Shown: piece by piece, positions 2,785 to 31,137 of the stretch
Layout of the letters: each line of letters starts with the position of its first letter
Position numbering within the stretch: position 1 is the first letter of the stretch
Assembly (NCBI GenBank): GCA_021432655.1
Contig: MU271564.1
Span: 1-44,245 of the forward strand
DNA length: 44,245 bases
Direction of reading: 5' to 3'
From: Atractiella rhizophila
Lineage: Eukaryota
Notes under the pieces: model-generated
Seen by the model: the letters and a program-made list of their open reading frames with translations, nothing else
Database searches by the model: none
Told to the model about the DNA's origin: nothing
Position numbers and translations under genes: made by a program

Positions 2785-5783
2785 CTTCGGACCACGGATG
2801 ACGATCTCATTCGCCTGTCCTTTCTCCTCACCTTCCTCACCCTCTTTCGAAGGGAAGTTGATTCGGACTTCATAAGTCGTCTCAAGACGCTTGAGCAACA
2901 TTCCTCCCTTTCCAATCAACGATCCGCGCTCGATGTTTGCCTCAGGCGGTGGCATCGGGATAGAAAGGGTAACCTCATCAGCCTGTCCGCAACCGCAATT
3001 TAAGACCCGACATCAACAACCGACGCACCCCTCCCACAAATGGGATAAAAACGTACCATCCGCTCGACGAGAGATAGGATCCTCTTCTTCGCCACCTCCA
3101 CATTCTCCTTCCTCCCCTTAATCAACACCTCAGCTTTGGCTTCCTCTTCCTCTTCTCCCCCTCCGTTGCCGCCACATCCGTAAAGTCGATTCTCACCGCC
3201 AAATCCTCTTTCAGCTTGTTGACGGTCGCTCCAGCCTTCCCAACGACGTGAGGGACGAACTTGGCGTCGATTTCAAAGGACTGAGTCTGAAACACCCACA
3301 CACTCTCAGTATCCTCATCCAACAGACCAAAGGAGGAAAGGATACGAACGTAAGAATTGACGGCCTGGTTCTCCTTCTCATCCGCGGCAGCCTTGAGAAT
3401 GGCTTCCTTGACGCGTGCGACATCAGCAGGCTTTCCACGGATGGAGACTTGGTCTTCTTTCAAGCTGTCCTTGTCCGCTTGACCGGTGGAGGGGAACTTG
3501 ACGATGACAGTCTTCTCCTCTCCGATAATCACGTTCACTACACAAGATCAAAGCTTAGATAAGGAAGAGAGAGGGTGGTGAGAACGCACAGTTGGCACCA
3601 CCAGGGACCGATGATGGCCTTGTGCAGTTTATTAGGCACGGTGATGATCTCGCTCTTGATATCCGCCTCCTTCTTCGCTTGCTCCACCAACTCAGTCTTC
3701 ACGTCCGCCAACGCCTCCTCCGCCTTTCCGTCACCAGTATAAACCAAGAGGACCTCGGATTCGTCTCCTCCCTTATCCTTCTCCGAAGGGAACAAGACCT
3801 CGACACCCTTCTTCTCCTGGAAGGTTCGGACGCGGGAGCCACCTTTGCCGATGATATGCTTATGAACCAGAGGATCGATGGAGACGGTAGCGAAGTGAGC
3901 AGGCGACAGGGACTTGGTAAGAGCCACGACATCAGCGCGAGCAGCGTCGAGAGCGCCCTGATTCTTGGAGACGATCTCGACGACCGCGCTGACGGGGACG
4001 CGTAAATCTGGAAATGCTTCTCCTGGATCGCTCTCAACTTGTTCTCAACTTGCTTCGATGCTTCTTCCCTCCTTCCCTTCCCTTCCAGATCCACCACGTC
4101 CACCAACGTCGCGTTCGCCTTCTCCATCACCTTCTGCAGACCGGTCGGCAAAGCTTCCTGCGGTCCACGGATGGTGACATTCATCGACGGGTCGTCTTGA
4201 GGCGGCACTTGGATCGTGCATCCCGTTTCCTTGAGGATTTCTTCGCCTGCAGCGCCGATGAGGAAGCGATGTTGCCTCTTCTGGATGGCAAAGTTGAGCG
4301 TGGTGGTCTTGCGTTTCAACGTGTCATAATCCTCCTTGAGCGCCTCCACCACCCTCGCCACCTTCGTCTTCTCCCCACTAACCACGATCGCCGTCTCCCT
4401 CCCACCCCGCGGGAGCCGCTCCGTCCTCTCCAGCAGCAGCAGCAGCATCAACGGTATTCCATTTCCCCGACAAGAGCGCTCTCCAATCCGGCACATCCAC
4501 TCTCACCTCCTCGCTTCCGCCCTCTTCCTCCTTAAAAACAACCTCGTCAGCCTCTCGCCCATGTCCCGCTTCAAGAAAGGATAAAACTCGACGGGGATGT
4601 CCGTCACCTTTTCCGTCCCCTTCGAGTTTCGCTCAGCCACGATGGCGTTGATCCGCTCCCGAGCGGTCGTCACCCCTTCCACGTCCCCCGCGATCGTGAT
4701 CGTGATCGTCATGTCCTCGGGAAGGTCCGTGCCGGTGGGGCGAGGGGGGAATGTCGATGCGCGCGCCCGTGCTGTCGGTGATGGATTTCAGAGTGCGTCC
4801 TTTGAGACCGATGATGTGGGAGAGGTTGGCGAGAGGCACGGGCAGCTGGACCGTTATCTGGTCGCCGGGTTATTAGCTTTAGTCCAACAGACAGCAGCTT
4901 CCACATTCAAAATAGGGAGAGTTTTCGGTGTATGGCAAATTTTCACACTCATTCTTCCTCCGTACAGACACTGGTGACGAAATGCCATCCAGCATAAAAC
5001 CATGCCTCCACTAAACCGCTAATAAAGATAAAAAAAGACTCACCTTCTTCGTGACCCTAGCCACCAACTCCTTCCTCGCTCTCACGACCGCCCTCCGTTT
5101 TACCCTTAATAGCGAACGTAGTCAACCCGGAGCTCTGACTTCTCGAAGATTCGATCTGAACAGTTCCATTAGACATCTTGATGATGAGTTTCATGACCTC
5201 TCCCAGCGTCTTCGGCTCCTCTTCCCTCCTCCCACCGCCTCTTCCCCCTCCCGACTGATGGAGCGGCTTGACTTCGATGCTATTCGTCGACAGCGCGAAC
5301 GTCTGCGTAAACGGATAAGAAGCGGCTGTATGGAACGATCCAGCACGTATAGCAGGTCCCCAAGCCGGCGCTGCACCCGTTCCCGTGGGCGTGGTGGCAG
5401 TAGCGGTCGCGGGTTCGGGGGTCAACGGTCTCGATGATCCAGGGGTGGCGCTGGCGGCTTTTGGCGGGGCGAGCGAGGAAAGGGAGGGAAACGCAGCCTC
5501 GTCCTCCACGTTCGGAAGCCTGGGCGTCCCTTGTCCCTGTCCCTGTGCTCCGCTCGCCGCGCCCTTGGAGGCTTTGGCGGACGCATCCTTGACCGGGAAG
5601 GGATCTTCCATCGCGTGGTGCGCCTGCAGGAGGGCGGCCGCGCTACCTGCTGCAGTGGTGCTCGTGCTGGGGCTCGTGCTGGAGGAGGACCCGATGGCGC
5701 CGTAGCTTCCGTTGGTGTGTGAGGTGCCGTTGAGGGGCGACGTGGCACTGCGCGCCGCTGAGGGAGGGGAAGTCGTCGGCCAT
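2785..5783 (-). CDS. SCP160: Vigilin/Scp160 multi-KH-domain RNA-binding protein, 3'-truncated by the gap, with several apparent 1-nt frameshifts
   Basis: Repeated KH GxxG motifs (HIIGLKG, FLIGAAG, HIIGKGG, AIIGPGG, HVVGKAG, LIGKGG) and N-terminal FPSL motifs. Introns include 4858-5043. Confidence 0.88.
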
Positions 5784-5980
5784 CTGCTGTGTGTGTTTTT
5801 TGATGTGAACCGTGGCGTGTTACCGGCGATGATGCTCTGACCTGGCGAATGACACTGCTGCTGCTTGCTTGAAGTAGTCGTCGCTCACTTTGCCCTTTTC
5901 TCTGTCCACTCTCATCATCTTGCATCATCTTATCCTGATCATTCAATGATCATTCAAGAGTAGAAGCAGCAGCCTAAGAT

Positions 5981-8683
5981 ATGGCAGCACCGACGAGTTG
6001 TCCTGGCTTCAACACGCCCAAATGTAAAGGGACTGCTGCCAGAAGGAGCAGCGAGGTGTCCAACCTGTTTGAAGCAGGGCGTGACGAGCAGGTGGTGTTC
6101 CAAAGGTTCGTCTTTGGCATCCCAGCTTTAGAATTCGAGAAGGCTGATGAAATGTTGCTCTCCAGAGTGCTTTGCTGATAATTGTACGTCTCCTCTCTTT
6201 AGATTAATCTACGGCTGATCCTGCTACAGTCGTGAGTGATTTGATCTCGATTTAGGCTATATCATCTCGATTTATGTTTCTTTTCTTAATCTGATTAACT
6301 CGTTGAACAAAGGATTCCTAATAAAACAGGAATACAGCTTATGTCTTTTCTTTGTAGTCAAGAAAGGCATCTCCCGCTCAACCAAGAGCATGATGTCAGT
6401 GTTGTTTGAAACACTTCTTACCTTCAAACACCGCACTCCATTCCGCAAATTCACGCTGGGAGATGCTCCAATGCAATCATTCCATCCACAGCTTTTAATG
6501 ATTCAAGCAAAGAGCAAATACTTTATTTGGGTGCTTTTCGCCCAAATATAAAGCGAGAGCCTTTCAGGTCTCGCTGTAGTGTATGTATGCCTAAATGTCC
6601 TGGTATCTCTCACCAGACAAAAAAACATTTCCATTTATATCTCAACATCGCCGTGTTCAAAAAATGGCACAGCTCTAACGTTATCGAATCTTGAAGATAT
6701 CGATTTGTAATGATCTCTGCGTGTGATTATTCTAGCAGGTTGCACACAATTTTTCAATCGTTCGAGTTTTTTGATAGGTCCATCAAAGGCATTTTCGACT
6801 TATATTAGTCTCACTGTTTCAAGTTCCGGAGCAGTACGTTCCATCACATTTTCTCACACTTTTGCAGTTGCAATTGCAAAGGAGTGTGTGGTCAGGCAAG
6901 GAAGTCACTGTCGTTCTCCCTTACGTTTGAGTGTCGAGTTCTAAACGAGATTTTTCTATCTCAGCTGAACCAAATAGCTTTACGAGATCATTACCACCTA
7001 ACTCCTGAAAGCGACATTCTCATTTTCACTGACATCTGTTGAACTAGCCAAAACACAAATTGCTACACAAAGGTGGGTAAATCTCATTCGACAGGCAGCA
7101 CCTCTCACCGTGTCCCATCATTCAAGCGCACGACCCATACCCGAAAAAAGCGTACACCGGAACACTCCGAGCTTCGTTCCCAGCATCCGTTCGTTCAGTG
7201 CCATCAGACATCCAACAACGACAGGTGCCCGCTCATATCCCTAAACCAGACTATGCAGAATCAGGTGCGTCTCCTCCTTCTCCTCGTACCAATCCTTGCT
7301 GACGGTTTGGGATTTGGGTAGGTAAGTGGGGTCGCATCAAGTATGGAATCTCGGAAGTGGGTATGTCTGATCGACGATTTTTATATTTGAAAGGTCAATC
7401 GAAAACGGAAATGGCAGCTCGAAACTTTGCTCCTGCTTGTTTGGATGCGAAAGGCATCGAGGGAATGCGAGAAGTCTGTCGCGTGCGTCTTCTTCCTCTC
7501 GTCTTACCAATCTAAGTTGTAATGTATTTGGCGACAGTTGGCGAGAGAAGTATTGGACTTGGCTGCTAGTCACATTAAACCTGGAATCACGACCATAGAG
7601 CTGGATGAGATCGTACACAATGCTTGCATCGAGCGAGGAGCATATCCTAGCCCGTTGAACTACATGCTCTTCCCGCGCAGTGTTTGTACAAGTGTCAACG
7701 AAGTCATCTGTCATGGTTCGTCTTTCATTATCCTCCTGCAAGCCGAGCTTACTTTTTCCCAGGGATCCCTGATCTTCGTCCACTGGAAAAGGAGGACATC
7801 ATCAACCTCGACGTGACGCTCTACCACAACGGGTGTGTCAGCTCTGATCTTCTCACGTCACCTCAACCGACCCGAATGGGGCAGGTTCCACGGCGATATC
7901 AACGGAACGTATCCCGTCGACGAAGCGCATACCCCTCCAGACTCGCTACGACTCATCCGCACGGCTCGCGAGTGTCTAGACGAGGCAATAGCGATCTGTA
8001 AACCAGGAGTGCCGTATTCACAGCTCGGAAAAGTCATTGAAGGCATCGCTAATCGGGAAGGAATGGGCACCAATCGACGGTATTGTGGACATGGGATAAA
8101 TCAGCTCTTCCATTGCACACCAAACGTCCCGGTACGCTTTTATTTCCATTTCTCTCTCCCTCTGGAAATTGCTGAGTTAAGATTATGTAGCATTATGCTG
8201 CTAATAAAGCGCCTTATGTCATGAAACCAGGTGAGGATCTCATCGTCCTCGCTTCATTGTTTGTTAAAATCTTAATTTTCAGGAAATGTGCGCTTGAACT
8301 TATTATGATTATTTCGCTTCCTCACTCCGTTGCCCTCCAGACGTTCACAATCGAGCCGATGATCACATTGGGCGACCACAGAGACAAACATTGGCCGGAC
8401 AATGTACGCAACCGCTTTCTTCGTCGGGACATTTACTAACAAAACTGCACAGTGGACCGCAGTGACACGCGTGCGTCAAATCCACCTGAATCACCATTAC
8501 ACTGACAATTCGGGGACATAGGACGGAAGTCACTCTGCCCAGTTCGAAGAAACGCTGCTCATTACGGAAGACGGCGTGGAGGTTCTTACGGCGAAGCCTG
8601 GGTGGAAGTTGGGAGACGGCTGGCGAAACACTTCGCAGAAAGCACCGGAAGCAAGCGGGTCAGGGAGTCAGAATGGTGCGTAG
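5981..8683 (+). CDS. MAP1: Methionine aminopeptidase 1 (type Ib, N-terminal zinc finger), paralog A; many introns and microexons
   Basis: Zn finger [64 protein letters not shown]. One extra G at 6029-6031 shifts exon 1. Confidence 0.92.
6232..7047 (+). other. 816-nt spliceosomal intron of MAP1a, densely tiled with inverted repeats
   Basis: GTGAGT donor, CTGAC branch (~7029), TAG acceptor. More than 12 stem-loops visible by eye. The same intron is 49 nt in paralog B. Confidence 0.75.
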
Positions 8684-9076
8684 GCATTCTGGTAATAGCT
8701 ATCTTTTTTCGTTATTATCGCGCTTGAAAACCTGCCTCCATTATGCATATGTGACCATGACAAACTGTTCGTCGTACCTCCACTTCTTGCTAGGGAACTT
8801 CCTGTCCTGCTTCCATTCCCCTTCCACTTTGCCGCTCAAGTGTCCTGTTGTTGTCTCCGACCATCATCACGCGAATCAAGGCATGGATCAAATTGCAGCG
8901 AAACGTGACTTGAGACTTGCCTCATGGAACAGCAGGGTAAAGGCGTTGCTCGTCGCTTTGCAGCTGAGTCATCGGAGGAGAATAAAAGCTACCGTGAAGA
9001 AAAGTCTCCTCAAGCTAGACTTGCCTGAGTGTTCAGATCTTTCCATACCTTCAGTGCCTCGATAGATTTTCCCTCG

Positions 9077-9709
9077 ATGGATTCCACACCATCCACCCCA
9101 ACCGTCCTAGCAGACCCGACCTATCGGGTCCTAGATTCACCCTCTGTCGACTCCCTCATCTTCAAACACTGCCTCGCCATACGGGTCAAAGTGTTCGTAG
9201 ACGAGCAAAAGTTCACCTACGAATCCGAAGATGACGGACTCGATGTAGACTGTCACCACTTCCTCCTCCTTTCCCTTCCCTCCTCTCTCTCCTCCGCAAG
9301 CTCTTCCGAGCTCCTTGAGCGGTTAGAGAAGGAAGACGAGGCTGTTAAGCCGATTGGAGCGTTGAGACAGTTCGTGAAGAAGAAACCGGGGAAGGTTGCT
9401 CGGGTGGCTATCCTCCCTGAGGGAAGGGGGAAAGGGCTGGGAGGGTTGCTTGTGAGCAAGGTGGTGGAATGGGAAAGGGAGAATGGGAAGGTTAAGGAGC
9501 TGTTTCTGCACAGTCAATATCTACCGAAAACAATTCGGTTCTATGAGAGGTTCGTCGACCCCCGTTCTATTAATTTTACTTCCTGTTGCTCATGCAGTTT
9601 GTATAGGTTGGGATTCAAAAGTGACGGTTCACCGATCTTCATGGAGGACGGTATGGAGCACATCAAGCTGGTGCTTCCCCTTGTAAACTTAAAATATCGC
9701 GTAATGTAA
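9077..9709 (+). CDS. GNAT acetyltransferase (ElaA/YjcF-like), copy 2; intron 9550-9606
   Basis: ATG at 9077 (MDSTPSTP..) and the same GNAT motifs as copy 1. Confidence 0.83.
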   Translation: MDSTPSTPTVLADPTYRVLDSPSVDSLIFKHCLAIRVKVFVDEQKFTYESEDDGLDVDCHHFLLLSLPSSLSSASSSELLERLEKEDEAVKPIGALRQFVKKKPGKVARVAILPEGRGKGLGGLLVSKVVEWERENGKVKELFLHSQYLPKTIRFYERFVDPRSINFTSCCSCSLYRLGFKSDGSPIFMEDGMEHIKLVLPLVNLKYRVM

Positions 9710-10128
9710 CCACGGGAAAGTCCAAAAGGATGATGGGATAGATAACTCGATAAAAAGCGAATCACCATGAATTGCGCGGCATTCTCTTTCCCAAACATCA
9801 GAAACACACACAGAAACAAAAGGAACAAAAAGAAATCGAAGAAGCCGGACCACTCGAAATTTCCTCCTTTCTCTTCAATCTTCATCCTTGAATCTTCAAT
9901 CAGACAGAATACGTTTGTTCAGCGGCAGGGCACGACTGGTTTGGTTTGGTTGGTTGGGGTGGTGGGAATGAGAGTCGAGAAAAAACGTTCTTTGCTGCTA
10001 CGAATGTTGAGGGTGCATGCCAAATTAAGGGAATGAGAGAAAGAGAAGAAAGAAGAAAGGGTATGATCTCGTTGGAGATGTCGAAATTGAGCGAGCGGAA
10101 AGGAGTGGAAGGTTCAGGTGGAGTACGT

Positions 10129-11094
10129 CTACGATTGCTTGATCTGCAGCAAAACATCAATGGGCAACAGAACCCGAGAGGATGGAGGGATGTCTTACAT
10201 TCTGGGTGAGCCACGAGAGTCCTATATCGAGTTTCGGATGGGAAAAAAGTCAAAACATGGAGAGTGAAGGGAAGATGGAATAACAGACCTTCGAACAGCC
10301 CATCGCCTTGTAAGGCGTTGCTAGGGTGGCAATACCAGCTTCGATCCCTCATCTTGAGCAATCCCAATTTCTCCGTCACCTCAGTCGGGCTCATCGCTAC
10401 ACGTTCGCTTTAAAAAACAAACCAACATTCAAGAGGGAGGGAGGAATCGCAAAGACGGACCACCGGGCAAATCTTGCTTGTTGGCGAAAACGAGGAGCAG
10501 ACAATCCTTCATCTCCCTGTCTTGCAAGATCTTGTGTAACTCCAACCGTGCCTCGTCGATCCTCTCCCTATCCTGAGAGTCGACCACGAAAACTAACGCC
10601 TGTGTGCCGGTGTAATAGTGCCGCCAGAGGGGACGGATCTTATCTTGTCCTCCCACATCCCAGACGTTGAACCTGTCGTTTGATAAAATGAGCAGAGGGA
10701 TGAGGGGTCATGATTGGAAGAGGAGAAGGACGCACTTTACGTTCTTGTAGGTCACCGTCTCGACGTTGAAACCGACGGTTGGGATGGTCGTGACGGATTG
10801 ATTCAGCTTGAGCTTGTAAAGGATAGCTGTGACCACACACAACACGAGACAGAGCGAACACATCACCCATTCATTCATTCATGCATTCATTCTCCGAGAA
10901 AAGAAAGAACGCACTCGTTTTCCCAGCTGCGTCCAGTCCGAGCATGAGGATCCTCATCTCCTTGTTACCGAACAGCTTTCCTGCACCACCGCATCACCAA
11001 GTCAGAGTTTTGCGTGGATAGCCGAAGAAGTGAATGCGCATGGAAGCAGAATGGAAGGGCATGTACCGAGCGCTTTGGAGAGGGCGGCACCCAT
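10129..11094 (-). CDS. ARF6: ADP-ribosylation factor, Arf6 class, copy 2
   Basis: Same exon structure and protein as 1030-2000. Confidence 0.93.
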
Positions 11095-11276
11095 CGTTTC
11101 TGGCTATTAGAACTGGGGGACAGACACGAGTCAACAAACACTCTCTCAGCGTGAGGAAGATACTCACGACGTATACTTTTATGGTGACAGTGGTCAATCT
11201 CCTGAAGATGATTTGGGTTACGAGTTCACGTGACATGTTTCCGTCCAGCTCCAACTACGACGGGTGACAAGTCTCG

Positions 11277-14200
11277 ATGTCTCGATTTCGCACGTCAGCC
11301 GAAGAAAAGTCGAGCAGCGCCACCGTTTCTGCTTCGGGGTCGAGGAGACTGAGCACCAAGAGAGATCGAAGCGGATCGGTGGGGAGCAGCTATGTCCTGT
11401 CAGGTAGTGCGGGTGGCACTTCAAACACTGCAAACACCAACGCCTTCCCATCAGGTGCGTATCTTTCACATCACATGTATCCAGAACGGCAGTCAAATGG
11501 GTGTTTTTCTGGGTCAAAGCATCAATGATTTCGCCATCTGGACGGATCCGTCCCACGTCTCCTTTACAGCGCAGGGGAACCATCTCCGACCTTTTCCCGA
11601 CCTCTCCCTCTCCTCCGCCCAACACCAATCCTACCTCAACCTCCAGACGGTCTCCTCCGCCGTCGCCAAGAAGCAATCAAAGCGGAAACATAGGCATCGG
11701 TATCCCTCAGGCGTTCCACGCACACAACCCTCCTCCCTTGCGACCGGAAGACGAGGACGAGCCCTCCGACGAGTCGTTTGAGGATATTGGGAATGAACAG
11801 ACGTTCAGTAACACTCATCGGAACATTCCGTCGGCGGAGTATTCTGGCAGGAGCGGGTTTCGAAGGAGGAGTAAGAGGAAAAGCAATGGCCCTGGAGAAG
11901 ACAAAGACACGGCGAGCGTGAGGAGTGGTGGTGGTATAATCAAGGGGTTAGGGAGGAAAGGCTCTCGGATCTTTGGGGGAGGAAAGAGTTCGATGACGCC
12001 GTCAACGAACGAGGATGCCGGAACGACCCTTGGAAGGTCCGGATCACAGGGGTCGAACAGCATTGACGAACTGTTCAACTCCCTCACCTCTCCACGGTCC
12101 CCATCACCCGGCCCCAACCTATCTGGATACACCGGAAGTGGAAGTGGATATCCCGAATCCTCCCCGTCCCCTCCTCCAAGCGCCTCCCGCCGTCTGTCAC
12201 CACGCTCCTTCCTCAACCTTGGCATCTCCAATTCCTCCACGCCTGACCTCTCACAGCACCCTCCCTCTCCACCACCGAGCTCGGGAAGCAGACTGATGTC
12301 CACCATCGGCAAGGTCAAGTCGAAGTCGAAGCGAGGCGCAACCATCTCTACTCCTTCACCTTCCGTCACATCTTCTCCACTGAACAACAACTCCAATGCC
12401 CAAACACACAGTCGTGGTGGTTCGACGGATATCCTGCGCCCATCTCATCCTCCTCCAACACTACATTCCCGTACTTTCTCCCCTTCGATGCAACAAGAGC
12501 TCTTCAGAGCTTCTCCAGAGCCACCCACCCCTCCGACAGCAGCACAAGGCGGTCCAGACTTTCCCGTCGCCTGGGCTCCCTCCCACCAACCTCAACAGCA
12601 GCAACAAGAGACCCAAGGCCCTCCCTCCGCCTTCCCACGGCGTATCTCAGGCTGGCTATCCGGCGTCCTCTCCCCTCCCACTCCCAGCCCAACACCCGGA
12701 CCCGGATCCGGAGGCAGTGGGACGGAAACTCTCTCTCCCAGTCCCCTGCCGCGCACTTCCAGCGCAAGTGGATACCGTGTGATGCAGGGAAAGAACGCGA
12801 GCGCTCAGTCCCTCTCTTTCCCCCCTCCCTCTCGCGAACGTTCCGTATCTCCGTCACCAGCTCCTCCCCCGCCTCCGGCGTCCAGTCCCCCCTCGACGTT
12901 CCGCGCTCCGTCCCCTAAGAAGAGCGCTGGAGGAGGGTTAGGTGGATGGGTCGGCCTGGGTGGAGGTGGTGGATTGGATAAGGCGGTGCAGTTCTTTTTG
13001 GATTCGGATTCGAATGGAGTGGGAAGTGGTGAGGAGATTTGGGTGATGGGTGTGCGACATGATGGTGTTGTGAAGGACGAGGAGAGGGAGAAGGAGAGCA
13101 AGAAAGAACGGAAGAGAAAGGAGAAGGAGAAGGAAAGAGAGAGGGATGAACTCGAAATCGTTAGAGTTGGAGCATCTACACCTGGAGGGAGCAAGATACT
13201 CTCTGCCCTCCCGAAGAGAGCTATCGTCAAAGCGTTACCTGGGGCAGTGACTGGTGGGAACAAGCTGATGTCTTCGGCGGCAAAACTAGCGTCATCCAAT
13301 AGCAAGGAGAAGAAAGGAAAGAAGGAGCAACAAGCGTCTTCAGCTCCACGGTTTCGAGAAGGATGGGATCGGAACGCCTCCGTATCCCCACCCCCCTCCT
13401 CCGCTGCATCCACATCCTCCGGTCCACTCTCTTCCATGCCCTTCCCTCCCCCATCCCTTGCACAAACCGGAGGCTGGCCCCCGAGCTTCTATCACGACTT
13501 CTACTCCCGCATCGTCCTCCACTACCGCTCCGGATTCCCAGTCATCCCTTGTCAACCGAACACCAACCCTCTTCGCGACGTGCTCGGCAGTCTTTCAGCC
13601 TCCTTAGGGAGGGGAGGCGGACCGAGCGGGCGCACGGCTGACGGTCTGACGAGCGATGCGGGATGGGGTTGCATGCTCAGGACTGGGCAATCCCTTCTCG
13701 CGAACGCGTTGGAGCGTGTACATCTCGGTAGGGAATGGAGAAGACCTGTACCCGCGAAAGATAAAGAACCGTCGTCGCCGATGGTCGTTGTCGATCCTCA
13801 TACTTATCAACGTCTCATCAGCTGGTTCATTGATGATCCCTCGCCCCTAGCACCGTTCTCGGTGCACAAGTTTGCGGTGAAGGGAAAGGAGCTGGGGAAG
13901 GAGATTGGAGAGTGGTTCGGCCCTTCTACCGCCGCTGGTGCTATCAAGTCCGTCGTTTCTTTTGACTACTATCTTCTTTCTGATTTCTAATGTTGATGAG
14001 ATTAGGAGTCTGACGAATGAGTTTGCGCCGGCGGGCATGGGCGTTGCGAACGCGATTGATGGAACCCTCTACCGCACAGACGTCTATGATGCTGCCCAGA
14101 CCGTCTTGAAGAAGGAGAAGAGGAGGAGCAAGGACGTGATGCGGAACCCGAATGCCAAAGTCAAATGGCAACGACCTGTGTTGGTTCTTTTCGGCTTACG

Positions 14201-15601
14201 TTTGGGCATCAACGGGGTAAATCCGATTTATTTCGAAAGTGTCAAGGTACACGTTCCTCTGAAACTCTTAGTATGAATGGAATGCTGAGAAAGATTTGGT
14301 GCAGGCAATCTTCCGCTTCCCTCAATCGGTGGGAATCGCAGGCGGTCGACCGTCCTCATCTTATTACTTCATCGGCTATCAAGGCACTTCCCTTTTCTAC
14401 ATCGATCCACATCACACCCGTGCCTCCATTCCTCTCCGCATTATTCCCCAGGAACTTCATCAACAAGCGCTGACGAAGCCTTTGACGAGCGGAAAGAAGG
14501 ATGATTCGGAATGGGAGAAGCTGGAAAACAACAACGATTCCGGATCGTTCCAATCCGTCAGCTTTAAACCATCTTCTTCCCCCACCACCAGCTCTTTTGG
14601 CGGATTCAGCGGTGGCGTCGCAAACTCCAACTCGTCGACCTCCAAGTATGGAGACACCGAGAAGGAGGATCCGCTGGACGCTTTCTTCTCCCAGGCTTAT
14701 CCGGATGTCTCGCTTAGAACCTATCATTGCGAAAAAGTTCGGAGGATGGGCATCACCGGCCTCGATCCCAGCATGCTGGTAGGATTCTTGATCAGGGACG
14801 AGGTAGACTGGGAGGACTTTGTCGCTCGGACAAAAGAAGTCCGTTTCTCTTTTTTTTAAGCTTTCGGGTTGCTGACATCTCAAATGATAGCTCCCCAAAT
14901 CCATATTTTCCATTCAGAACGAAATGCCACACTGGCTAAGGGGCAAAGGGACGGAGAGCGATGGCAGTACCTCAGATCACGGCGTCGAGTCACTGTCAGA
15001 ACCAGAAGATTGGGAGGAAGATGGGACATCTTCCTCGAAGCAGTCAGACTCCAACTACAATTCCATCCGCAAGAGCAAGGAGAACACTCCTTTCTCAGAA
15101 GAACTTGATGCAGAGGTGACTCCGAATACGAAGCGGAAACCAGACCCACCGCCGGAGATGGACCTCGGCGAGGAGACGCCAGAGCTTGACGATTCCATGG
15201 TATCTGAAAATCCAACACTCAACGCGAAGGAGCCAGATAGGGATTCATGGGTCGACACCGGTTCCACGGGCGGATCTGTACCTTCAACCGCCAGACCAAA
15301 CAAAACGTTCAATCACGACGATTCCAGACCGCAATCGGATTATCAGACTCTGCTCAAGGACGATGAGAGTGTATTGATGATGGGTAGCGGAAGCATTCAT
15401 AGTCTCGAAGGTTGGCAGAGAGTGGAGGAGAAGAGGAAGAGGAAAAGTTCTGGCCTTGCTCTGGGGTGGAGTGGGGATGACGATGACGATGACGAGATGG
15501 AATCATCGGAGCCCCAGGTTAGTGCAGAAGGAAACAGCAACGATCAAACTCGACAACCTGATCGCAACGGAGAAGTTCAAAAACCTTCCATCAGCCGTTG
15601 A
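11277..15601 (+). CDS. ATG4: Atg4 cysteine protease (peptidase C54) with long disordered N- and C-terminal extensions; introns ~11455-11519, 13948-14005, 14247-14304, 14839-14890
   Basis: SDAGWGCMLRTGQSLLANAL (catalytic Cys), WFGPSTAA, GIAGGRPSSSYYF, YIDPH (Asp/His), DPSMLVGF. Confidence 0.93.
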
Positions 15602-18811: not shown

Positions 18812-19483
18812 TCACCAAATCAAGCGTCGATGCGATTCTGATACAGCCCGATGTTCCCTCACATGTTTCTCCAGTAACCCCTGTGACCAAGCCTTTTCTT
18901 CTGCACGTAAAATGCTATCCAAATCTTCTCCCTCTTGTCGTAACGAAAATGAGAGGCAACGAAAAAGTTCCATCTCCATCTCGTCGATTTCCCCAACTGA
19001 AAAGATCCCTTTTGAAGCTATGCTCCACGAAGAATTGGCATAGGAATTGTCGAGGGAGTAGGCAGATGCGAGGACGAGACTTGAGAGGAAGATTCGTTCG
19101 TGGAAGAAGGGAGGCGCGTTTGCATTTGGTGATGTCTCAAAGCTTCGGGAGAGGCGCTTGACAAGGTGGATGGCATGGAAGACTGTAGGATTGGGAACAT
19201 CTGTTCGGTATAAGACATACGCCTGCACGATATTAGTTGGTTGCAGTTGTCAAAATGATTGCGAAACTCACAATCCAAGTTTTCAGGCAATGTTTTTTGA
19301 TAGGTTCTGAGGAACGAGTGACCGCACCAAAGAGCTTAACGAAGGTGTCAGCAAAGAGAACCGCCAGGTCTACATCAACATCAGCTTGAGCCGCTTTGGG
19401 TAAGGTATAGACAGGAACGCACCTCTGTGACTGCTGCACTTGGCTTCCAGAGAATAACTTTCACTTTCTTGTTGAGAGACCAT
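18812..19483 (-). CDS. Pho80/Pcl-family (Pho85-type) cyclin, divergent (3 exons)
   Basis: Spliced ..WI|AYVLYRT..TVFHAIHLVKRL..HERIFLSSLVLASAYSLDNSYANSSW..IFSVGEIDEMEMELFRCLSFSL matches the Pcl cyclin box pattern. Confidence 0.75.
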
Positions 19484-20091
19484 TTTGAGCAATACGATCA
19501 GCTTGTTAAAGTTGTGAGGAATAAGGGTAGTTCGCTTGTGCTGTGGTTGGTAAGTGAGGTAGAATGAAGAGCTCTTGACCCATAACTTATATACCCTGAC
19601 ATAAGGCATCTGGTAATTTACCCATAAAAAAACAGAGCGCAATTCAAGCGCGCATCTACAACAGCGAGGAACTTCGCCCAAGAGAGCCGTGGTTAAAAAC
19701 TCTATAAATTTGCAACAGCGCCATCTAAGATGCGCACACAGGGCTTCGGGTCGCTGCTCGCTTTTGCCTCGCATCAGATAAACCATGTGGAAGGGCATCC
19801 CGATCAGGCAGAAACGACGGGAGAAGAAGATTGCAACGATGACCGACACCCGTAACTAGCCAGGTAGAAAAGAAACCTAGCGCTGGAATTTTGCCAGAAC
19901 CGAGCCAGCAGAACGTGACACGACGATCTATGGAGCGAGGATAGCTCCCAGAGTGATGCTCCTCAGATTGTCGAGGCTGAACGAAAGAGAGGGACGAGGA
20001 ACTGAGTGCAGGAAGATATTGTCCAGGGTTGTTCACAAATACGAATTACGGAATGCTACTGATGTCAGGTCTAAGAAGCAGCGCACGCGTC

Positions 20092-21281: not shown

Positions 21282-21698
21282 TCGCCCAAGCGAGCCGTGG
21301 TTAAAAACTCTATAAATTTACAACAGCGCCATCTAAGATGCGCACACAGGGCTTCGGGTCGCTGCTCGCTTTTGCCTCGCATCAGATAAACCATGTGGAA
21401 GGGCATCCCGATCAGGCAGAAACGACGGGAGAAGAGGATTGCAACGATGACCGACGCCCGTAGCTAGCCAGGTAGAAAAGAAACCTAGCGCTGTAATTTT
21501 GCCAGAATCGAGCCAGTAGAACGTGACACGACGATCTATGGAGCGAGGATAGCTCCCAGAGGGATGCTCCTCAGATTGTTGAGACTCTTCGCAAGGAGGG
21601 AGGAGAAAGTGAGCACGGTAAGATAATGTCCAGGTTGTTCACAAAATACGAATTACGGAATGCTACTGAGGTCGCATCTAAGAAGCAGCGCACGCGTT

Positions 21699-23128
21699 TC
21701 AGAGTGCGGAATAACCAGAACGACCAGTCCGTCCCCCGGTGACAATATCGCTGTGGAAAATGTTAGCATAAAATAACGCAGACAACATCACTTACCGTAA
21801 GAGGTAGGGAAGATCACGCCTAAAGACAATATCAATTCCGGTTCAAATGCAAGAGCGATGGGTAATCACCAAAAGTCTCGATGAGGTATCAAATCCCAAC
21901 CTCGAGCTCCAAAGTTCTTGTGGTTGTTATAAATTCCGATACCAAAATAGGCAGCAAGACCGCAAAATATCCTGGTCCAACACGTCATCTCAGGTCTTTA
22001 GCTGATATGAAGCAATCCTAGACGCACAACAAGAAAAATGTGCCTACTCCCCATCCACCACCGCCACCACCTTTACTCCCTTCATCGTCTTCTGACTTGT
22101 CTCCTCCGCGCCGCAACAGGTCAAGGTCGCATCCGGCTCTGGACACCCACTCGAGCTCGAGCTTTCCTTCCTCTTTCTCCCCTAATTCCAGATCTGAATA
22201 CCGCATACTCTTGATCGTCGGTTCGGTCTGCTCAATCGTAGGTGAGCGAAGTGCCATGAAGGGAAAGCTGGATCACCTTTTCTGCATCCTCCGAACAGGT
22301 GAAGGATATTGACGTAGAAAGAGCACGGCCATTGTAAGAGCCTCCCGTGAGGTTAACGACAAAATTTGCTGTGTACAAATTATCAATAAGGGTTGTACTA
22401 ATACTCGATTCTGAACTATGCATGAATCCGGTAAATGCTGACGGCGTATTCTGCAAGTGATAATTCAAAAAATGCTCATAGATATTTATGCGCCGGACTG
22501 TGTAAGAAGGAGGTTGAGTCCTTTGAAATTAATGCGGGACAACTCCAGTTCTCTGCAAATGGTAAAGCAAAGGGGAGCCACAACGACAACTTTCTCAGCA
22601 GCTCAGCCTCACCCTACGAATAGCAAAGTATCCCTATAGAATTGTTCACAAGTCCAGAGAAAGGAAAAGGACATGTGTTACATCTGCCATGTAGAAGCGA
22701 GACGTACCGTTGCTCTTCCCTTTAGGTTTCTCGACGGTTCCCTCTCCTTCTGCCCAGTCAATCACCCTCGTAATCCTTTCTCTCTCCACTTCCTTCTCCT
22801 GATCCCCATCTGGCAATTTCTCCTTCTTAAAGTTCCTTTCCTTCGAACACACCCTGCTCCCTTCCTTACACCTATCACCTTCCTCTGCATCTTTCTCCCC
22901 GTCCAGCTTCAAAGCGTCGCATAAAGAAATGTAAATAGACGTCTGCGTGCGCGTTGGCGGTGTCGTTTGGTCGAGTATGAGCGTAGTGAGTGGTGGAAGA
23001 ATGGACAAGTCGTATGACTTGGAGTTGAGCGAGAATGTACATGAAAACGGCTCACCATTGGCTGTGGCTGCCAAAAGAAGGACAAGGGAGAACGGCAGAA
23101 GCGATATTCGAGGAAGCATTGTAGACAT
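21699..23128 (-). CDS. ATG27: Autophagy protein Atg27 (M6PR-like type I membrane protein); first intron 22369-22707
   Basis: Signal peptide, YDLS, TPPT..ISLC..C..GSRVC, TM helix, YNNHKNFGARGWDLIPHRDFW..DLPYL, C-terminal YxxPhi motif GYSAL*. Confidence 0.88.
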
Positions 23129-24023
23129 AATTTGCCTGTTGGAAAGAACAGCTCAAACCTTAAGACATTACTGATCGAAGCAAATTGAGGCAACCGTGCT
23201 TAACAGCCGTGAAGTTGAAGTTGAAGAACAAATATTTGATTGAGCTTGGGTCCTTGGTGTTAAGCGAATTACGACAGGAGAAGTCAGGAGAAAGGCTTAT
23301 AGCTAGCACGCTGTTTGGTCTCAAGCGTCAGGATAACCACTGGCATCTAGTAAGCTTTCTCAATCAATCAGTGATTGAAGCCATCTATTCCTTCACAGTG
23401 TGCGTTTTACTCTCATTTAGAGTTGTGTTCTGTGGCTTCGAGTACCGAGACAATAATAATCTCATGAGTGACGCTCTCCGTGACTACAAACATTCCACAG
23501 CAGATTATTGTTTGTTTCTTCGGGCCATTCTACGAGTTATATCCCCTTGTTATAGATGACCTGCTAGGTAAAAATCTTCTTGCACGCAGATTCTGGTCGT
23601 TGCAATCTGAAGAAGGCGGCACTATCAAGATCTCGTCTGTCAGGCTTGATCTTGGTTGAAGGCTCTTTGTTCGTGACAGCTTGAATGGATACGTGCCCAA
23701 TAAAATGTTGTGGGATACATGGCTTTGTGTATGCAGAATCAATTGACGCCGCTTCCTTTTTGTCAGGAGAAAAAAATAAGGACCTTGCGTTCTTTCCCTA
23801 TTGTCCAATACACAAACACGATTTGTCGATTTGACCAACTGTCGTCAAGTAGGACCTTTCTCTAATGCCATCGTACACCTCTGTCTACTCTCCTATTGAT
23901 TTGACTTGCATCAATACTAACTGGTCACCAGATCAGAGCTAGTGCGCGTTACCGAATTTCAACTCGAGTCTCCACTCTCATCTCACTCTTCCTTCACTTG
24001 ATTCACAACATACTTCAACACCA

Positions 24024-24528
24024 ATGGCTGCCTCAGAAGCTGGAGGCTCCGATTGGCACACCATGTGAGTCCTTCCCGAGCCCTTCTTCCTTTCGCCCTC
24101 TCTAACCACGCGACCATGCTTTCTCACAACGCAGCAACCTTTCAATACCATTCGCTACCGCCCCCGCTTGCTCCACAGCCCTCCGTGTCCTTTCCATCGA
24201 TCGTCCATTGCGCTCAGAAACGCTCAAACGGGTACTTTCCATCTCTCCCTCATCACCAAATACCTTGAACGTGTATATCCCTTCTTCTTCTTCTTCGCAC
24301 ACGCCAAAGCGATGACATTTGTTCTTCAGCGAATTCCAATCTCTAACGCTCCGCCAGGCTCGTGTCGCCATTGACCACTTTCTCGCTGATCTCAAATTGG
24401 TGGCGGAGACGATGACGGAGTTTGGGCCTGAGGAGTTTGGGGGGACGAAGAATGGAGAGAAGGAGGAAGCGGATAAGAGCGTGGAGGTGGGGTTGAAGGG
24501 CAGCTTTGATGGGACTAATATCCGTTAG
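24024..24528 (+). CDS. PCC1: EKC/KEOPS complex subunit Pcc1/LAGE3 family, copy 1 (3 exons)
   Basis: Spliced DWHT..LSIPFAT..ALRVLSIDRPLR..KRVL..LNV..LTLRQARVAIDHFLADLKLVAETMTEFG. Confidence 0.8.
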
Positions 24529-24748
24529 ACAGAGTTGGTCAGATTGACACCTTACATGTATCATTCGGAAACGAAATTTGAGAGAATGAATGTGATATAA
24601 CTTGTATCAAATTTTCTACCTTTCATCCAGTGTATCAGATGCTTGAGTTATCTAACCATCCTTACAACGTCAGGAAAGACAAGTACACAATCCAAAGAGA
24701 TCCAGCATGTACATAACCCTCACACAGTCTGGCGGGGATTAGCAAGCT

Positions 24749-25264
24749 TCATTCCTCAGTCTTCCAACCATCACCCCATTTCCATCCATTGGCAGCCGTA
24801 AGCACTTCCACTCCATCCTCGGTGATCAAGAGCGTTTCCTCCCACTGCGCAGAATGCTTACCATCCCTCGTGACAGAGGTCCAGTTGTCTGGCCAATGCC
24901 TATCTCGGTAGTCCCCGAGAGTGATCATAGGTTCAATAGTGAAGGTGTGCCCTGGTTTCATCACGTATGGAGCCTTATTGGCAGCGTAATGGGGAACATC
25001 GGGGATAGCATGATAGAGCGTATTCACGCCGTGTCCAATGTACCTTTCGTTCCCGGATCAGCTTGATCAGTACCGACTCTTTTTACGTTGAAAGGAGGCT
25101 CAAAACGTACTTTCTGACGGTCCCCATGCCATGCCTGTCCGCTGTCTTCTCGATCACTTTTCCCACCTCTCTATAAGGAACTCCGGGCTTGCAGATGGCA
25201 ATGGCCTGGTCTAGACATTCGCGAGATGCCTTAATGAGACGGAGAGATTCAGGAGGTGTGTGAG
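24749..25264 (-). CDS. MAP1: MAP1 paralog B, 3' fragment running into the gap
   Basis: Nearly identical to 29530-30045. Confidence 0.85.
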
Positions 25265-25979
25265 NNNNNNNNNNNNNNNNNNNNNNNNNNNNNNNNNNNN
25301 NNNNNNNNNNNNNNNNNNNNNNNNNNNNNNNNNNNNNNNNNNNNNNNNNNNNNNNNNNNNNNNNNNNNNNNNNNNNNNNNNNNNNNNNNNNNNNNNNNNN
25401 NNNNNNNNNNNNNNNNNNNNNNNNNNNNNNNNNNNNNNNNNNNNNNNNNNNNNNNNNNNNNNNNNNNNNNNNNNNNNNNNNNNNNNNNNNNNNNNNNNNN
25501 NNNNNNNNNNNNNNNNNNNNNNNNNNNNNNNNNNNNNNNNNNNNNNNNNNNNNNNNNNNNNNNNNNNNNNNNNNNNNNNNNNNNNNNNNNNNNNNNNNNN
25601 NNNNNNNNNNNNNNNNNNNNNNNNNNNNNNNNNNNNNNNNNNNNNNNNNNNNNNNNNNNNNNNNNNNNNNNNNNNNNNNNNNNNNNNNNNNNNNNNNNNN
25701 NNNNNNNNNNNNNNNNNNNNNNNNNNNNNNNNNNNNNNNNNNNNNNNNNNNNNNNNNNNNNNNNNNNNNNNNNNNNNNNNNNNNNNNNNNNNNNNNNNNN
25801 NNNNNNNNNNNNNNNNNNNNNNNNNNNNNNNNNNNNNNNNNNNNNNNNNNNNNNNNNNNNNNNNNNNNNNNNNNNNNNNNNNNNNNNNNNNNNNNNNNNN
25901 NNNNNNNNNNNNNNNNNNNNNNNNNNNNNNNNNNNNNNNNNNNNNNNNNNNNNNNNNNNNNNNNNNNNNNNNNNNNNNN
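25265..25979. other. Assembly gap (715 N)
   Basis: Run of N. Confidence 1.
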
Positions 25980-26338
25980 CGCACACAGGGCTTCGGGTCG
26001 CTGCTCGCTTTTGCCTCGCATCAGATAAACCATGTGGAAGGGCATCCCGATCAGGCAGAAACGACGGGAGAAGAAGATTGCAACGATGACCGACACCCGT
26101 AACTAGCCAGGTAGAAAAGAAACCTAGCGCTGGAATTTTGCCAGAACCGAGCCAGCAGAACGTGACACGACGATCTATGGAGCGAGGATAGCTCCCAGAG
26201 TGATGCTCCTCAGATTGTCGAGGCTGAACGAAAGAGAGGGACGAGGAACTGAGTGCAGGAAGATATTGTCCAGGGTTGTTCACAAATACGAATTACGGAA
26301 TGCTACTGATGTCAGGTCTAAGAAGCAGCGCACGCGTC

Positions 26339-27779
26339 TCAAAGTGCGGAATAACCAGAACGACCAGTCCGTCCCCCGGTGACAATATCGCTGTGGAAAA
26401 TGTTAGCATAAAATAACGCAGACAGCATCACTTACCGTAAGAGGTAGGGAAGATCACGCCTAAAGACAACATCAATTTCAGTTCAATTGCAAGAACGACA
26501 GGTAATCACCAAAAGTCTCGATGAGGTATCAAATCCCAACCTCGAGCTCCAAAGTTCTTGTGGTTGTTATAAATTCCGATAGCAAAATAGGCAGCAAGAC
26601 CGCAAAATATCCTGGTCCAAAACGCCATCTCAGGTCTTTAGCTGATATGAAGCAATCCTAGACGCACAACAAGAAAAATGTGCCTACTCCCCATCCACCA
26701 CCGCCACCACCTTTACTCCCTTCATCGTCTTCTGACTTGTCTCCTCCGCGCCGCAACAGGTCAAGGTCGCATCCGGCTCTGGACACCCACTCGAGCTCGA
26801 GCTTTCCTTCCTCCTTCTCCCCTAATTCCAGATCTGAATACCGCATGCTCTTGATCGTCGGTTCAGTCTGCTCAATCGTAGGTGAGCGAAGTGCCATGAA
26901 GGGAAAGCTAAATCACCTTTTCTGCATCCTCCGAGCAGGTGAATAATATTGACGTAGAAAGAGCGCGGCCATTGTAAGAGCCTCCCGTGAGGTTAACAAG
27001 GAAATTTGCTAGATACAAGTTATTAGTAACGGTCGTCCTAATACTCAATTCTGAACCACGCATGAATCTGACAAATGCTGACGACGTATTCTGCAAGTGA
27101 TAATTCGAAAAATGCTCATAGATATTTATGCGTGGGACTGTGTAAGAAGGAGGTTGAGTCCTTTTGAAATTAATACGGGACAACTCCAGTTCTCTGCAAA
27201 ATGGTAAAGCAAAGGGAAGCCACAGCGACAACTGTCTCAGCAGCTCAGCTTCACGCCACAAATAGTAAAGTATCCCCTTGCAGGCTTATAGAATCATTCA
27301 AAAGTCCAGAGAAAGGAAAGGACATGTGTTCCCTCAGCTCTGTAGAAGCGAGACGTACCGTTGCTCTTCCCTTTAGCTTTCTCAACGCTTCCCTCTCCTT
27401 CCGACCAGTCAATCACCCTCGTAATCCTTTCCCTCTCCACTTCCTTCTCCTGATCCCCATCTGGCACTTTCTCCTTCTTAAAGTTCCTTTCCTTCGAACA
27501 CACCCTGCTCCCTTCCTTACACCTATCACCTTCCTCTGCATCTTTCTCCCCGTCCAGCTTCAAAGCGTCGCATAAAGAAATGTAAATAGACGTCTGCGTG
27601 CGCGTTGGCGGTGTCGTTTGGTCGAGTATGAGCGTAGTGAGTGGTGGAAGAATGGACAAGTCGTATGACTTGGAGTTGAGCGAGAATGTACATGAAAACG
27701 GCTCACCATTGGCTGTGGCTGCCAAAAGAAGGACAAGGGAGAACGGCAGAAGCGATATTCGAGGAAGCATTGTAGACAT
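26339..27779 (-). CDS. ATG27: Autophagy protein Atg27, complete second copy
   Basis: Same structure as 21699-23128 with a few substitutions. Confidence 0.88.
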
Positions 27780-28799
27780 AATTTGCCTGTTGGAAAGAAC
27801 AGCTCAAACCTTAAGACATTACTGATCGAAGCAAATTGAGGCAACCGTGCTTAACAGCCGTGAAGTTGAAGTTGAAGAACAAATATTTGATTGAGCTTGG
27901 GTCCTTGGTGTTAAGCGAATTACGACAGGAGAAGTCAGGAGAAAGGCTTATAGCTAGCACGCTGTTTGGTCTCAAGCGTCACGATAACCACTGGCATCTA
28001 GTAAGCTTTCTCAATCAATCGGTGATTGAAGCCATCTATTCCTTCACAGTGTGTGTTTTACTCTCGTTTAGAGTTGTGTTCTGTGTCCTCGAGTAACGAG
28101 ACAATAATAATCTCAATGAGTAACGCTTCCCGTGACCACAAACTGCCACAGCTGTATATTGTGTGTTTCTTCTGCATAACCTCGCTAGCCGTTCTACGAG
28201 TTATTCTTCCTTGATATATATGACCTGCTAGGTTTTAAAAAGCATTTTGCGCTCAAATTCTGGGCATCGCAGTCCGAAGAAGGCGGCACTATGAATACCT
28301 CGTCTGCTCGCATTTAGGGTTGGGCTCTTCATTCGTGGCGGCTTGAATGGATACGTGCCCAATAAAATGTTATGGGATACATGGCAGCAGAATTGCGAAC
28401 TGTGACAAGCTGACAAGCTTTCTCCCCACAACTAAGAGCTGGGTGGCTGTCTTTCTGTCCAGCATCTCTGGCTATGATAAAGAGATCAGCTCGCTCTCAA
28501 CTACGGCTTTTTACCCACAGAATCAATTATCGCTGCTCCTTTTGTTGTGGGGGAAAGTAAGAACTTGCGTCTTTCCCTATTGTCCTATTCACACGATTTT
28601 GCCGACGAACTGTCGTCAAGTGGGACTGTTTTCCAATGTCATCACACACCTCTGTCTACTCTGCCATCGCGTTCACCTGCATCGACACTTACTGATCACC
28701 AAATCAGAGCGAGTACGCTTTATCGAATTTCAACTCGAGTATCTCTCGACCTTTCATCTCATTGTTCCTTCACTTGATTCACAACATACTTCAACATCA

Positions 28800-29309: not shown

Positions 29310-29529
29310 ACAGAGTTGGTCAGATTGACACCTTACATGTATCATTCGGAAACGAAATTTGAGAGAATGAATGTGATATAACTTGTATCAAATTTTCTAC
29401 CTTTCATCCAGTGTATCAGATGCTTGAGTTATCTAACCATCCGTACAACGTCAGGAAAGACAAGTACACAATCCAAAGAGATCCAGCATGTACATAACCC
29501 TCACACAGTCTGGCGGGGATTAGCAAGCT

Positions 29530-31137
29530 TCATTCCTCAGTCTTCCAACCATCACCCCATTTCCATCCATTGGCAGCCGTAAGCACTTCCACTCCATCCT
29601 CCGTGATCAAGAGCGTTTCCTCCCACTGCGCAGAATGCTTACCATCCCTCGTGACAGAGGTCCAGTTGTCTGGCCAATGCCTATCTCGGTAGTCCCCGAG
29701 AGTGATCATAGGTTCAATAGTGAAGGTGTGCCCTGGTTTCATCACGTATGGAGCCTTATTGGCAGCGTAATGGGGAACATCGGGGATAGCATGATAGAGT
29801 GTATTCACGCCGTGTCCAATGTACCTTTCGTTCCCGGATCAGCTTGATCAGTACCGACTCTTTTTACGTTGAAAGGAGGCTCAAAACGTACTTTCTGACG
29901 GTCCCCATGCCATGCCTGTCCGCTGTCTTCTCGATCACTTTTCCCACCTCTTTGTAAGGAACTCCGGGCTTGCAGATGGCAATGGCCTGGTCTAGACATT
30001 CGCGAGATGCCTTAATGAGACGGAGAGATTCCGGAGGTGTGTGAGTTGGATCGACGGCATATGTCGCGTTCAGATCAGCGTGGTACCTGTTTCGTAGAGT
30101 GGAGGATTAGAGTGGTTGTCCGTCTGCAAGCTCAGACCGGAGGATTGGGAAGACAGACCCGTTGTAGAAAAGAGAGACGTCGAGATTGATGATGTCTTCC
30201 TTCTCAAGAGGTCGACAATCAGGAATCCCTACAGAACTAGGTCATCGGCATTCTTCACACAATGACTGCGAGAACGCATACCGTGGCATATGACCTCGTT
30301 TACGCTGGTGCACACCGAACGAGGGAAGAATCCATAGTTCAAAGGTGAGGGATAAGCATTGCGCTTGATGGCTTCTTCATGTACAATCTCATCGATCTCT
30401 AGTGTCGTGATTCCAGGCCTGATAGCGGCAGCGGCTATATCAAGCACTTCCCTTGTCAACTAGCCAAGCGTTAATATTTCAAGGACAGAGAGGATCAGAT
30501 CGACAAGCGCACACGTCCGACAGTCTTCATCGCCTCTATGCCTGCCTCATCGAGAGCGACCGGAGGCTTCATTCGCGCCGCATACTCCAATTTCGATTCT
30601 CCCGTCGCAGCGTAATCCGGACGGGGGATGTGAGCAGGAACGTGACGCAGCGGGATGTCGGCTGGGATGTTGCGCATGTTGGAGGGAAAGGAAGCGCGCA
30701 ATGAGCCAGTGTAGGTTTTCTTTGTGTAGGGATCGTGCACTGTCCTTTAGGTTGACCATGCAATGGGCGATAACGGAGAAATTCACTAACGCTTGTGTTG
30801 GGATTTGTGTTTTGGCTTGAACGGGGGGAGTTGGCTTGCGTTCAGTGCAGGAGAAGAGACGTACGACTGTTCAGCATATGAGCATTCTGCGTACGGGTTA
30901 AAAGGGGTTACTTACAATTATCGACAAAGCATTCTATAGGTCATGAGAATATACTTTAGCTTCAATGTGCTAGATTTTGGTGAATGACCACAGACCTTTG
31001 GAGCACCAGCGGCTGGTGTTGCCCTGCTTCAGGCATACACTGCATCGTGTGCCTTCCTCTTGGTCAGGAACGAGACCTTTGCATTTTGGCGTGTTGAATC
31101 CTGGACAAGCCACAGGCACTGCAGCTTCGGCAGACAT
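29530..31137 (-). CDS. MAP1: Methionine aminopeptidase 1, paralog B (complete)
   Basis: [89 protein letters not shown]. Confidence 0.92.

Follow-up and report, generated by a model that had tools for sequence, protein, structure and literature searches.

A stretch of 44,245 nucleotides (nt) from Atractiella rhizophila (GenBank assembly GCA_021432655.1, contig MU271564.1, positions 1 to 44,245), referred to here as the window, contains two genes, designated copies A and B, whose product is a type 1 methionine aminopeptidase (MAP1) with an N-terminal zinc finger. We infer, with a probability of about 0.88, that two bases, TC, form a constitutive internal exon of 2 nt in both paralogs. The mature mRNA of copy A holds TC between exon 2 and exon 4, as observed in an RNA contig, and use of TC as an exon in copy B is predicted from an equivalent layout. 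The two bases complete a Phe codon within the zinc finger, the flanking introns occupy the same place and phase in both genes, and the published protein of copy B has Cys at the position where the microexon would give Phe.

Layout of the interval and RNA evidence

Exon 2 of copy A ends at 6183 (...GATAATT/gtacgt, slashes marking exon-intron borders) and exon 4 starts at 7048 (ctag/CCAAAACAC), with the frame between them short by two bases. Within this interval lies ctgctacag/TC/gtgagt, TC occupying positions 6230-6231. Copy B, on the reverse strand, is arranged in the same manner, with ...GATAATT/gtaagt (exon 30933-30916), gctgaacag/TC/gtacgt (30866-30865) and ttcaag/CCAAAACAC (30815). TC is therefore flanked directly by a canonical acceptor AG and a canonical donor GT in both genes (acag/TC/gtgagt in A, acag/TC/gtacgt in B). 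A sequence-only reading of this DNA had proposed the microexon with precisely these coordinates and strings, all of which are verified in the sequence, and had described the exon at 7048 as large; its start is correct, whereas its length is only 25 nt (7048-7072). The same reading had called the intron sequences of the two paralogs unrelated, in agreement with a blastn comparison in which 5900-8700 matches copy B only over 7580-8040 (65% identity), with no match between exon 2 and 7048.

The 864-nt interval of copy A contains three AG/NN/GT sites, namely TC (giving Phe), CA (Ser) and GA (stop), and the 100-nt interval of copy B contains a single such site, which is TC. When each interval was shuffled 5000 times with dinucleotide composition preserved, AG/TC/GTRNGT arose in 0.42% (A) and 0.10% (B) of the shuffles, and a site with any base pair coding for an aromatic residue in 1.8% (A) and 0.34% (B). 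Judged against these shuffles, the occurrence of the TC site in both copies together is far beyond chance. The intron upstream of TC is in phase 1, lying within the Phe codon, and the downstream intron is in phase 0, directly after it. Donors of the flanking introns, GTACGT and GTGAGT in A and GTAAGT and GTACGT in B, are like those of the 17 other introns in both genes. Three of the four flanking introns have branch-like motifs (CTGAT, CTGAC and CTCAT) at 11-15 nt from the acceptor, resembling those of the other 17 introns; intron 3 of copy B has no match to YTNAY, a general consensus not derived from these genes, and contains only CTGAA, picked by eye.

Weak matches were found in six sequencing runs, and the contigs of four of these were aligned to 5500-9200, the region of copy A; spliced copy A forms are present in all four. 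The contig that carries the microexon, X1 record 1 (recorded as RNA, metatranscriptome; 222 letters, depth 3.3, 95-99% alike to the window), spans 5984-6105, joins 7048 with AATGCTTTGCTGATAATTTC between the two sides, and continues through the joint 7072>7127. In these 20 inserted letters exon 2, bearing a single synonymous G>A, precedes TC, and their GCTGAT is that of copy A, copy B having GTCGAT. RNA containing the TC junction, which the sequence-only reading had named as the check to be made, is thus at hand for copy A, and its claim that two bases are needed to keep the frame agrees with a contig in which exon 2, TC and the exon at 7048 follow one another. Because 6230-6231 is the only AG/TC/GT in the interval, it is the source of these two bases under GT-AG splicing.

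A second contig, X6 record 13 (depth 5.9), has the exon 1-exon 2 junction made and is then unspliced over 6164-6654, with intron 2, TC and 423 nt or more of intron 3 still present. Compared with the window it shows 19 letter changes and 21 gap letters, none of the listed changes falling within 6225-6248, and the genomic AG/TC/GTGAGT is thereby confirmed in a second allele or strain. Similarity of this contig to the window is ~92-96%, the exonic contigs of X6 being mostly 99% or more alike, and it probably derives from another allele or strain.

Both contigs bear on the proposal that the frame is simply broken, either because one or both copies are pseudogenes or because two bases are missing from the assembly at this point. 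Copy A does have a 1-nt frame problem in exon 1, and signs of redundant assembly occur beside N gaps in the window. Nevertheless, with TC included copy B has an intact frame of 383 codons and copy A an intact frame from the zinc finger to the stop. Spliced copy A contigs come from four runs out of four, and for this copy the proposal is contradicted by the RNA contig itself. X6 record 13 independently confirms the genomic sequence over 6164-6654, and the same two bases would have to be lost from two copies whose exon 2-exon 4 intervals do not align. We regard a broken frame as an extremely improbable explanation.

A different alternative is that TC acts as a regulated switch, being skipped under some conditions with a resulting frameshift and nonsense-mediated decay, such that MetAP1 dosage is tuned by inclusion and skipping or by retention of the flanking introns. 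Skipping would indeed shift the frame, as the sequence-only reading had stated, a stop then being reached 47 (A) or 72 (B) out-of-frame codons later, with several exon junctions downstream, and the resulting transcript would probably be degraded. X6 record 13, which lacks intron 1 and keeps introns 2 and 3 at a depth of 5.9 compared with ~300 for mature X6 contigs, could be taken as a hint of late or inefficient splicing, and a switch-like microexon is reported in Trichoderma virens (PMC11121469). However, no direct 6183>7048 joint occurs among the contigs, a cover of few contigs that is too thin to show regulation either way or to exclude skipping. The non-mature form that was seen is one contig with both introns retained, not one with TC skipped, and a single unspliced contig would be expected of any gene. 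The retained-intron form has no link to a particular condition, and contig depth is a poor measure of abundance that cannot rank the forms; the X6 depths were accordingly not used to assess splicing efficiency. MetAP1 is in addition a housekeeping enzyme, and the layout shared by two paralogs is explained by the frame constraint alone. The suggestion of an on/off switch, made from the sequence before any RNA was considered, is not supported, the contigs showing a retained-intron form and no skipped form, and we consider regulated skipping quite unlikely.

Several points weigh against a constitutive TC exon in both paralogs. RNA support for TC consists of one metatranscriptome contig of low depth (3.3), from a relative or allele 95-99% alike to the window and not from the window's own strain, and it is limited to copy A. 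No half-spliced intermediate, with one intron removed and the other present, was found among the contigs aligned to copy A, and removal of the two introns in succession is deduced and not observed. Conservation of TC is established between the two paralogs only. Finally, exon 1 of copy A is one base too long in the window, placing its ATG out of frame, and copy A could be broken in this strain.

The zinc finger residue, the public record and conservation

The T that ends exon 2 and the TC of the microexon together encode Phe, the mRNA reading GAT AAT T/TC/CCA AAA CAC (D-N-F-P-K-H) and the finger reading CF(A/V)DNFPKHK. The top database match of copy B, P0001 ('putative methionine aminopeptidase type 1 [Atractiella rhizophila]', NCBI), has 383 amino acids (aa). 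The copy B model agrees with it at 379 of these 383 positions and departs from it by three substitutions and at residue 54, where P0001 has Cys and the model Phe. P0001 contains Peptidase_M24 (PF00557; E 4.1e-48, 164 bits against a cut-off of 23; Pfam), and its residues 30-62, covering residue 54, match zf-C6H2 (PF15801) with 25.2 bits, below the cut-off of 30 (Pfam). A precomputed table lists PF15801 for this protein, and the Cys/His pattern of the finger aligns with that of homologues. The sequence-only reading had placed the Phe codon completed by TC inside a zinc finger, and both the translation and the below-cut-off domain match spanning residue 54 agree with it.

P0001 was aligned with 36 homologues, giving 37 proteins in total; the homologues were chosen by us from the hit lists, represent Pucciniomycotina, other fungi and two animals, and do not comprise all hits. 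At the column of residue 54, the 36 homologues have Trp in 22, Tyr in 10, Phe in one, Ser in one and a gap in two, an aromatic residue being present in 33 and Cys in none. The Cys of P0001 is reproduced by a model in which exon 2 is extended by the GT of the intron and followed by one 98-nt AA..AG intron. Since borrowing GT in this way yields precisely the published residue, the public annotation of copy B, on comparison of the two models, missed the microexon, as the sequence-only reading had expected of gene prediction in general. The AA..AG model is the outcome of a frame-keeping prediction unable to place a two-base exon.

Taken at face value, the public record describes a gene with no microexon, in which one non-canonical AA..AG intron is removed and the mRNA reads AAT TGT CCA with a genuine Cys. 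This is compatible with residue 54 of P0001 and with its reproduction by the extended exon 2 of copy B. It conflicts with the copy A RNA contig, which shows TC and not GT, and with the homologues, in which the column is aromatic in 33 and never Cys. The perfect AG/TC/GTRNGT in both copies would have to be coincidence, at odds of 0.42% times 0.10%, and AA is not known to serve as a spliceosomal donor. An AA..AG intron is therefore scarcely tenable as an account of either gene. A protein search with exon 1 of copy B returned only the public record P0001 and no transcript-derived protein. For copy A, no protein was found among those of 145-2000 aa, the best match being 70% identical and from another genus; this search was word-based and its result is weak evidence of absence.

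Copies A and B share 70% protein identity, and seven of the eight copy B introns lie at the same aligned position and in the same phase as copy A introns, including both introns around TC. Because the two flanking introns share place and phase in paralogs of this degree of divergence, the TC layout predates the A/B duplication, and the claim of the sequence-only reading that TC is common to both paralogs extends to position and phase. A spliced-junction probe with 0-2 bases between the exons gave 0 matches in metagenome contigs. Relatives of P0001 in these contigs amount to 12 loci, which at 24-47% identity are all too distant for orthologues to be surveyed.

Four basidiomycete MAP1 models (P0002, P0037, P0123 and P0124) are odd at the aromatic column, alignment column 91. 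The Rhodotorula paludigena model reads CFASK-C-KKMH, compared with CFASKYPLHVKKMH in the neighbouring paralog, and the R. mucilaginosa model is without the rest of the finger, both Rhodotorula models having a gap at the column itself; Panus rudis has Ser, and the Cerrena zonata model breaks off after Phe. Alignment of these proteins suggests that small exons may be mis-modelled in all four, and the problem is probably not isolated, since the same column looks wrong in four other basidiomycete MAP1 proteins.

A broader proposal is that TC, or an exon of 2 nt plus a multiple of three starting in the same aromatic codon, is ancient in basidiomycete MAP1 and constitutes a slow splicing step that sets the amount of MetAP1. 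It is hinted at by the low-depth transcript that keeps just these two introns after removal of intron 1, and by the four of 36 homologue models, all basidiomycete, that are odd at exactly this column. We advance it tentatively and consider it doubtful.

Gene models, assembly and neighbouring genes

The coordinates of both genes, of the exons and introns around TC and of neighbouring genes are collected in Table 1.

Table 1. Positions of the MAP1 genes, of the elements around the TC microexon and of neighbouring genes in the window.
Feature	Positions	Strand	Description
MAP1 copy A	5981..8683	+	14 exons; from exon model and spliced contigs
Copy A exon 2	6166..6183	+	18 nt; last T opens the Phe codon; its letters are present between the joint sides in X1
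Copy A intron 2	6184..6229	+	46 nt; GTACGT...CTGAT...ACAG; CTGAT branch-like, its A 11 nt from the 3' end
Copy A microexon TC	6230..6231	+	2 nt; sole AG/TC/GT in 6184-7047; present in the X1 mature RNA contig
Copy A intron 3	6232..7047	+	816 nt; GTGAGT...CTGAC...CTAG
Copy A exon 4	7048..7072	+	25 nt; CCAAAACAC..., encodes PKHKLLHK; X1 joints 6105>7048 and 7072>7127
MAP1 copy B	29530..31137	-	9 exons, intact 383-codon frame; equals P0001 except F54C and 3 substitutions
Copy B exon 2	30916..30933	-	18 nt; predicted from sequence layout
Copy B intron 2	30867..30915	-	49 nt; GTAAGT...CTCAT...AACAG
Copy B microexon TC	30865..30866	-	2 nt; predicted; sole AG/NN/GT of the 100-nt interval
Copy B intron 3	30816..30864	-	49 nt; GTACGT...TTCAAG
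Copy B exon 4	30791..30815	-	25 nt; predicted from sequence layout
KH-domain protein	3125-4502	-	Pfam on open frames
Peptidase_C54 (Atg4-like)	11408-14856	+	Pfam on open frames
Cyclin	18815-19249	-	Pfam on open frames
NOG1-like GTPase	34149-35668	-	Pfam on open frames
MYST-family histone acetyltransferase with Tudor-knot	36198-38753	-	Pfam on open frames

Ten of the 13 copy A introns are backed by spliced contigs, in the case of introns 2, 3, 10, 11, 12 and 13 by letters enclosed between two joints. Support for intron 1 is a loose end of an X6 contig, and support for introns 2 and 3 is the single X1 contig; one further acceptor, at 7393/7394, was placed by RNA joints. At 816 nt, intron 3 of copy A compares with 46-129 nt for the other introns of both genes. 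A search for a hidden RNA gene in this intron gave no Rfam match at E up to 1, and it holds no open reading frame above 103 aa and nothing coding-like.

Copy A has a second microexon, GAAAT, of 5 nt at 8283-8287 (+), situated between introns of 52 and 53 nt and giving KPG-N-TFTIEPM. The letters AAAT are present between joints 8231 and 8341/8344 in all four runs, the G being shared with the donor, and copy B is without an intron at the place of this microexon. Exon 13 of copy A is also short, 18 nt (8453-8470), and was seen in two runs (X6 and X2).

Within the first exon of copy A, one frame contains both the ATG at 5981 and the conserved CPGFNTPKC and the downstream gene is in another, there being one base too many at about 6010-6045, likely in the A run of TGTAAAGGG. 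No other ATG serves the main frame of copy A, and an upstream stop is present at 5961. Over the 122 bases 5984-6105 the X1 contig is one letter shorter, with 121, and this length would restore the frame. The extra base is due either to an error in the assembly or to a frameshift specific to this strain.

Large direct repeats, 90-100% identical, are found at 1-2759 and 9110-11853, at 21341-25264 and 25980-30045, and at 19733-20053 and 25980-26300. They adjoin N gaps (2760-2784 and 25265-25979) and duplicate a GNAT acetyltransferase gene and an ATG27 gene. The position of the repeats beside the gaps suggests redundant haplotype contigs in the scaffold and not a true tandem duplication. A third, incomplete copy of the copy B 3' end, at 24600-25264 (-) and 99.1% identical to 29381-30045, is cut by the 715-N gap; the window does not include its microexon region, should it have one. 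The five neighbouring genes in Table 1 are all ordinary housekeeping genes.

Intron removal and comparison with known ultra-short exons

Under the favoured reading, that of a constitutive TC exon, each side of TC would be an ordinary GT-AG fungal intron with its own donor, branch-like motif and acceptor. Very short exons are subject to steric limits, the acceptor and the donor lying too close to be bound together, and the upstream AG and downstream GT, two bases apart, are probably not engaged at once. Since a two-base exon holds no exonic signals and its sites are this close, we infer that intron definition governs the removal of the two introns, which would leave in succession and without any need for exon signals. 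Loss of either splice site, or a change in the two bases, would abolish the frame or the conserved aromatic residue, and this constraint would account for the retention of TC.

Adjoining acceptor and donor sites are also a feature of recursive splicing at zero-length exons (AG/GT ratchet points) and of spliceosomal twin introns, in which introns are removed in successive reactions. The likeness ends there, as MAP1 leaves two bases in the mRNA and neither intron interrupts a signal of the other. A spliceosomal twin intron or recursive zero-length exon was accordingly rejected as a description of the MAP1 interval, both introns having complete signals of their own and two bases being left in the RNA.

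Exons of 2 nt are already documented as a rare kind, to which the MAP1 TC adds a new instance. For Coprinopsis cinerea, an annotation from long reads reports 57 two-nucleotide exons in 50 genes, together with 13 exons of 1 nt and 27 of 3 nt, and omission of these ultra-short exons leads to premature stops and broken gene models (PMC12230235). On the strength of the 57 exons reported there, basidiomycete spliceosomes handle 2-nt exons (PMC12230235). C. cinerea resembles the present case in being a basidiomycete with 2-nt internal exons; it differs in belonging to Agaricomycotina, whereas the window is Pucciniomycotina-like, and here the exon is common to two old paralogs. The readable supplements of that report provide no list of the genes concerned and name no aminopeptidase (PMC12230235).

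Arabidopsis APC11 is reported to have a constitutive single-nucleotide exon that was mis-annotated in a GenBank cDNA and is spliced from intron signals alone (PMC4674806). APC11 and MAP1 are alike in having a constitutive exon too short for exonic signals and a mis-annotated record. They differ in that APC11 is a plant gene with an exon of 1 nt examined through GFP fusion constructs, and support for the MAP1 exon comes from one RNA contig and sequence logic. Plant microexons of 15 nt or less are reported to be often missed by annotation and evolutionarily conserved (PMC8831610); that survey concerns plants. The switch-like microexon of Trichoderma virens mentioned above belongs to Xlr2 and is reported to be used alternatively according to glucose level (PMC11121469). 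Xlr2 is similar in being a case of a fungal microexon, its inclusion changing the protein made, and different in its alternative use, none having been seen for the MAP1 TC. No paper tying methionine aminopeptidase or MAP1 to a microexon was found in the searchable literature. A search for 2-nt exons returned nothing on fungal genes among the papers listed, and two Cryptococcus papers contain 'microexon' only as a read-mapper setting.

The MAP1 TC is a clean case, RNA-backed for one copy, of an exon without room for exonic signals. Its retention through an old gene duplication in a housekeeping gene implies that a two-base exon can persist stably over long times by means of intron definition alone. 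In the public copy B protein the zinc finger contains a wrong residue, Cys in place of Phe, and exons of this kind can be hidden when annotation pipelines preserve the frame by admitting non-canonical introns.

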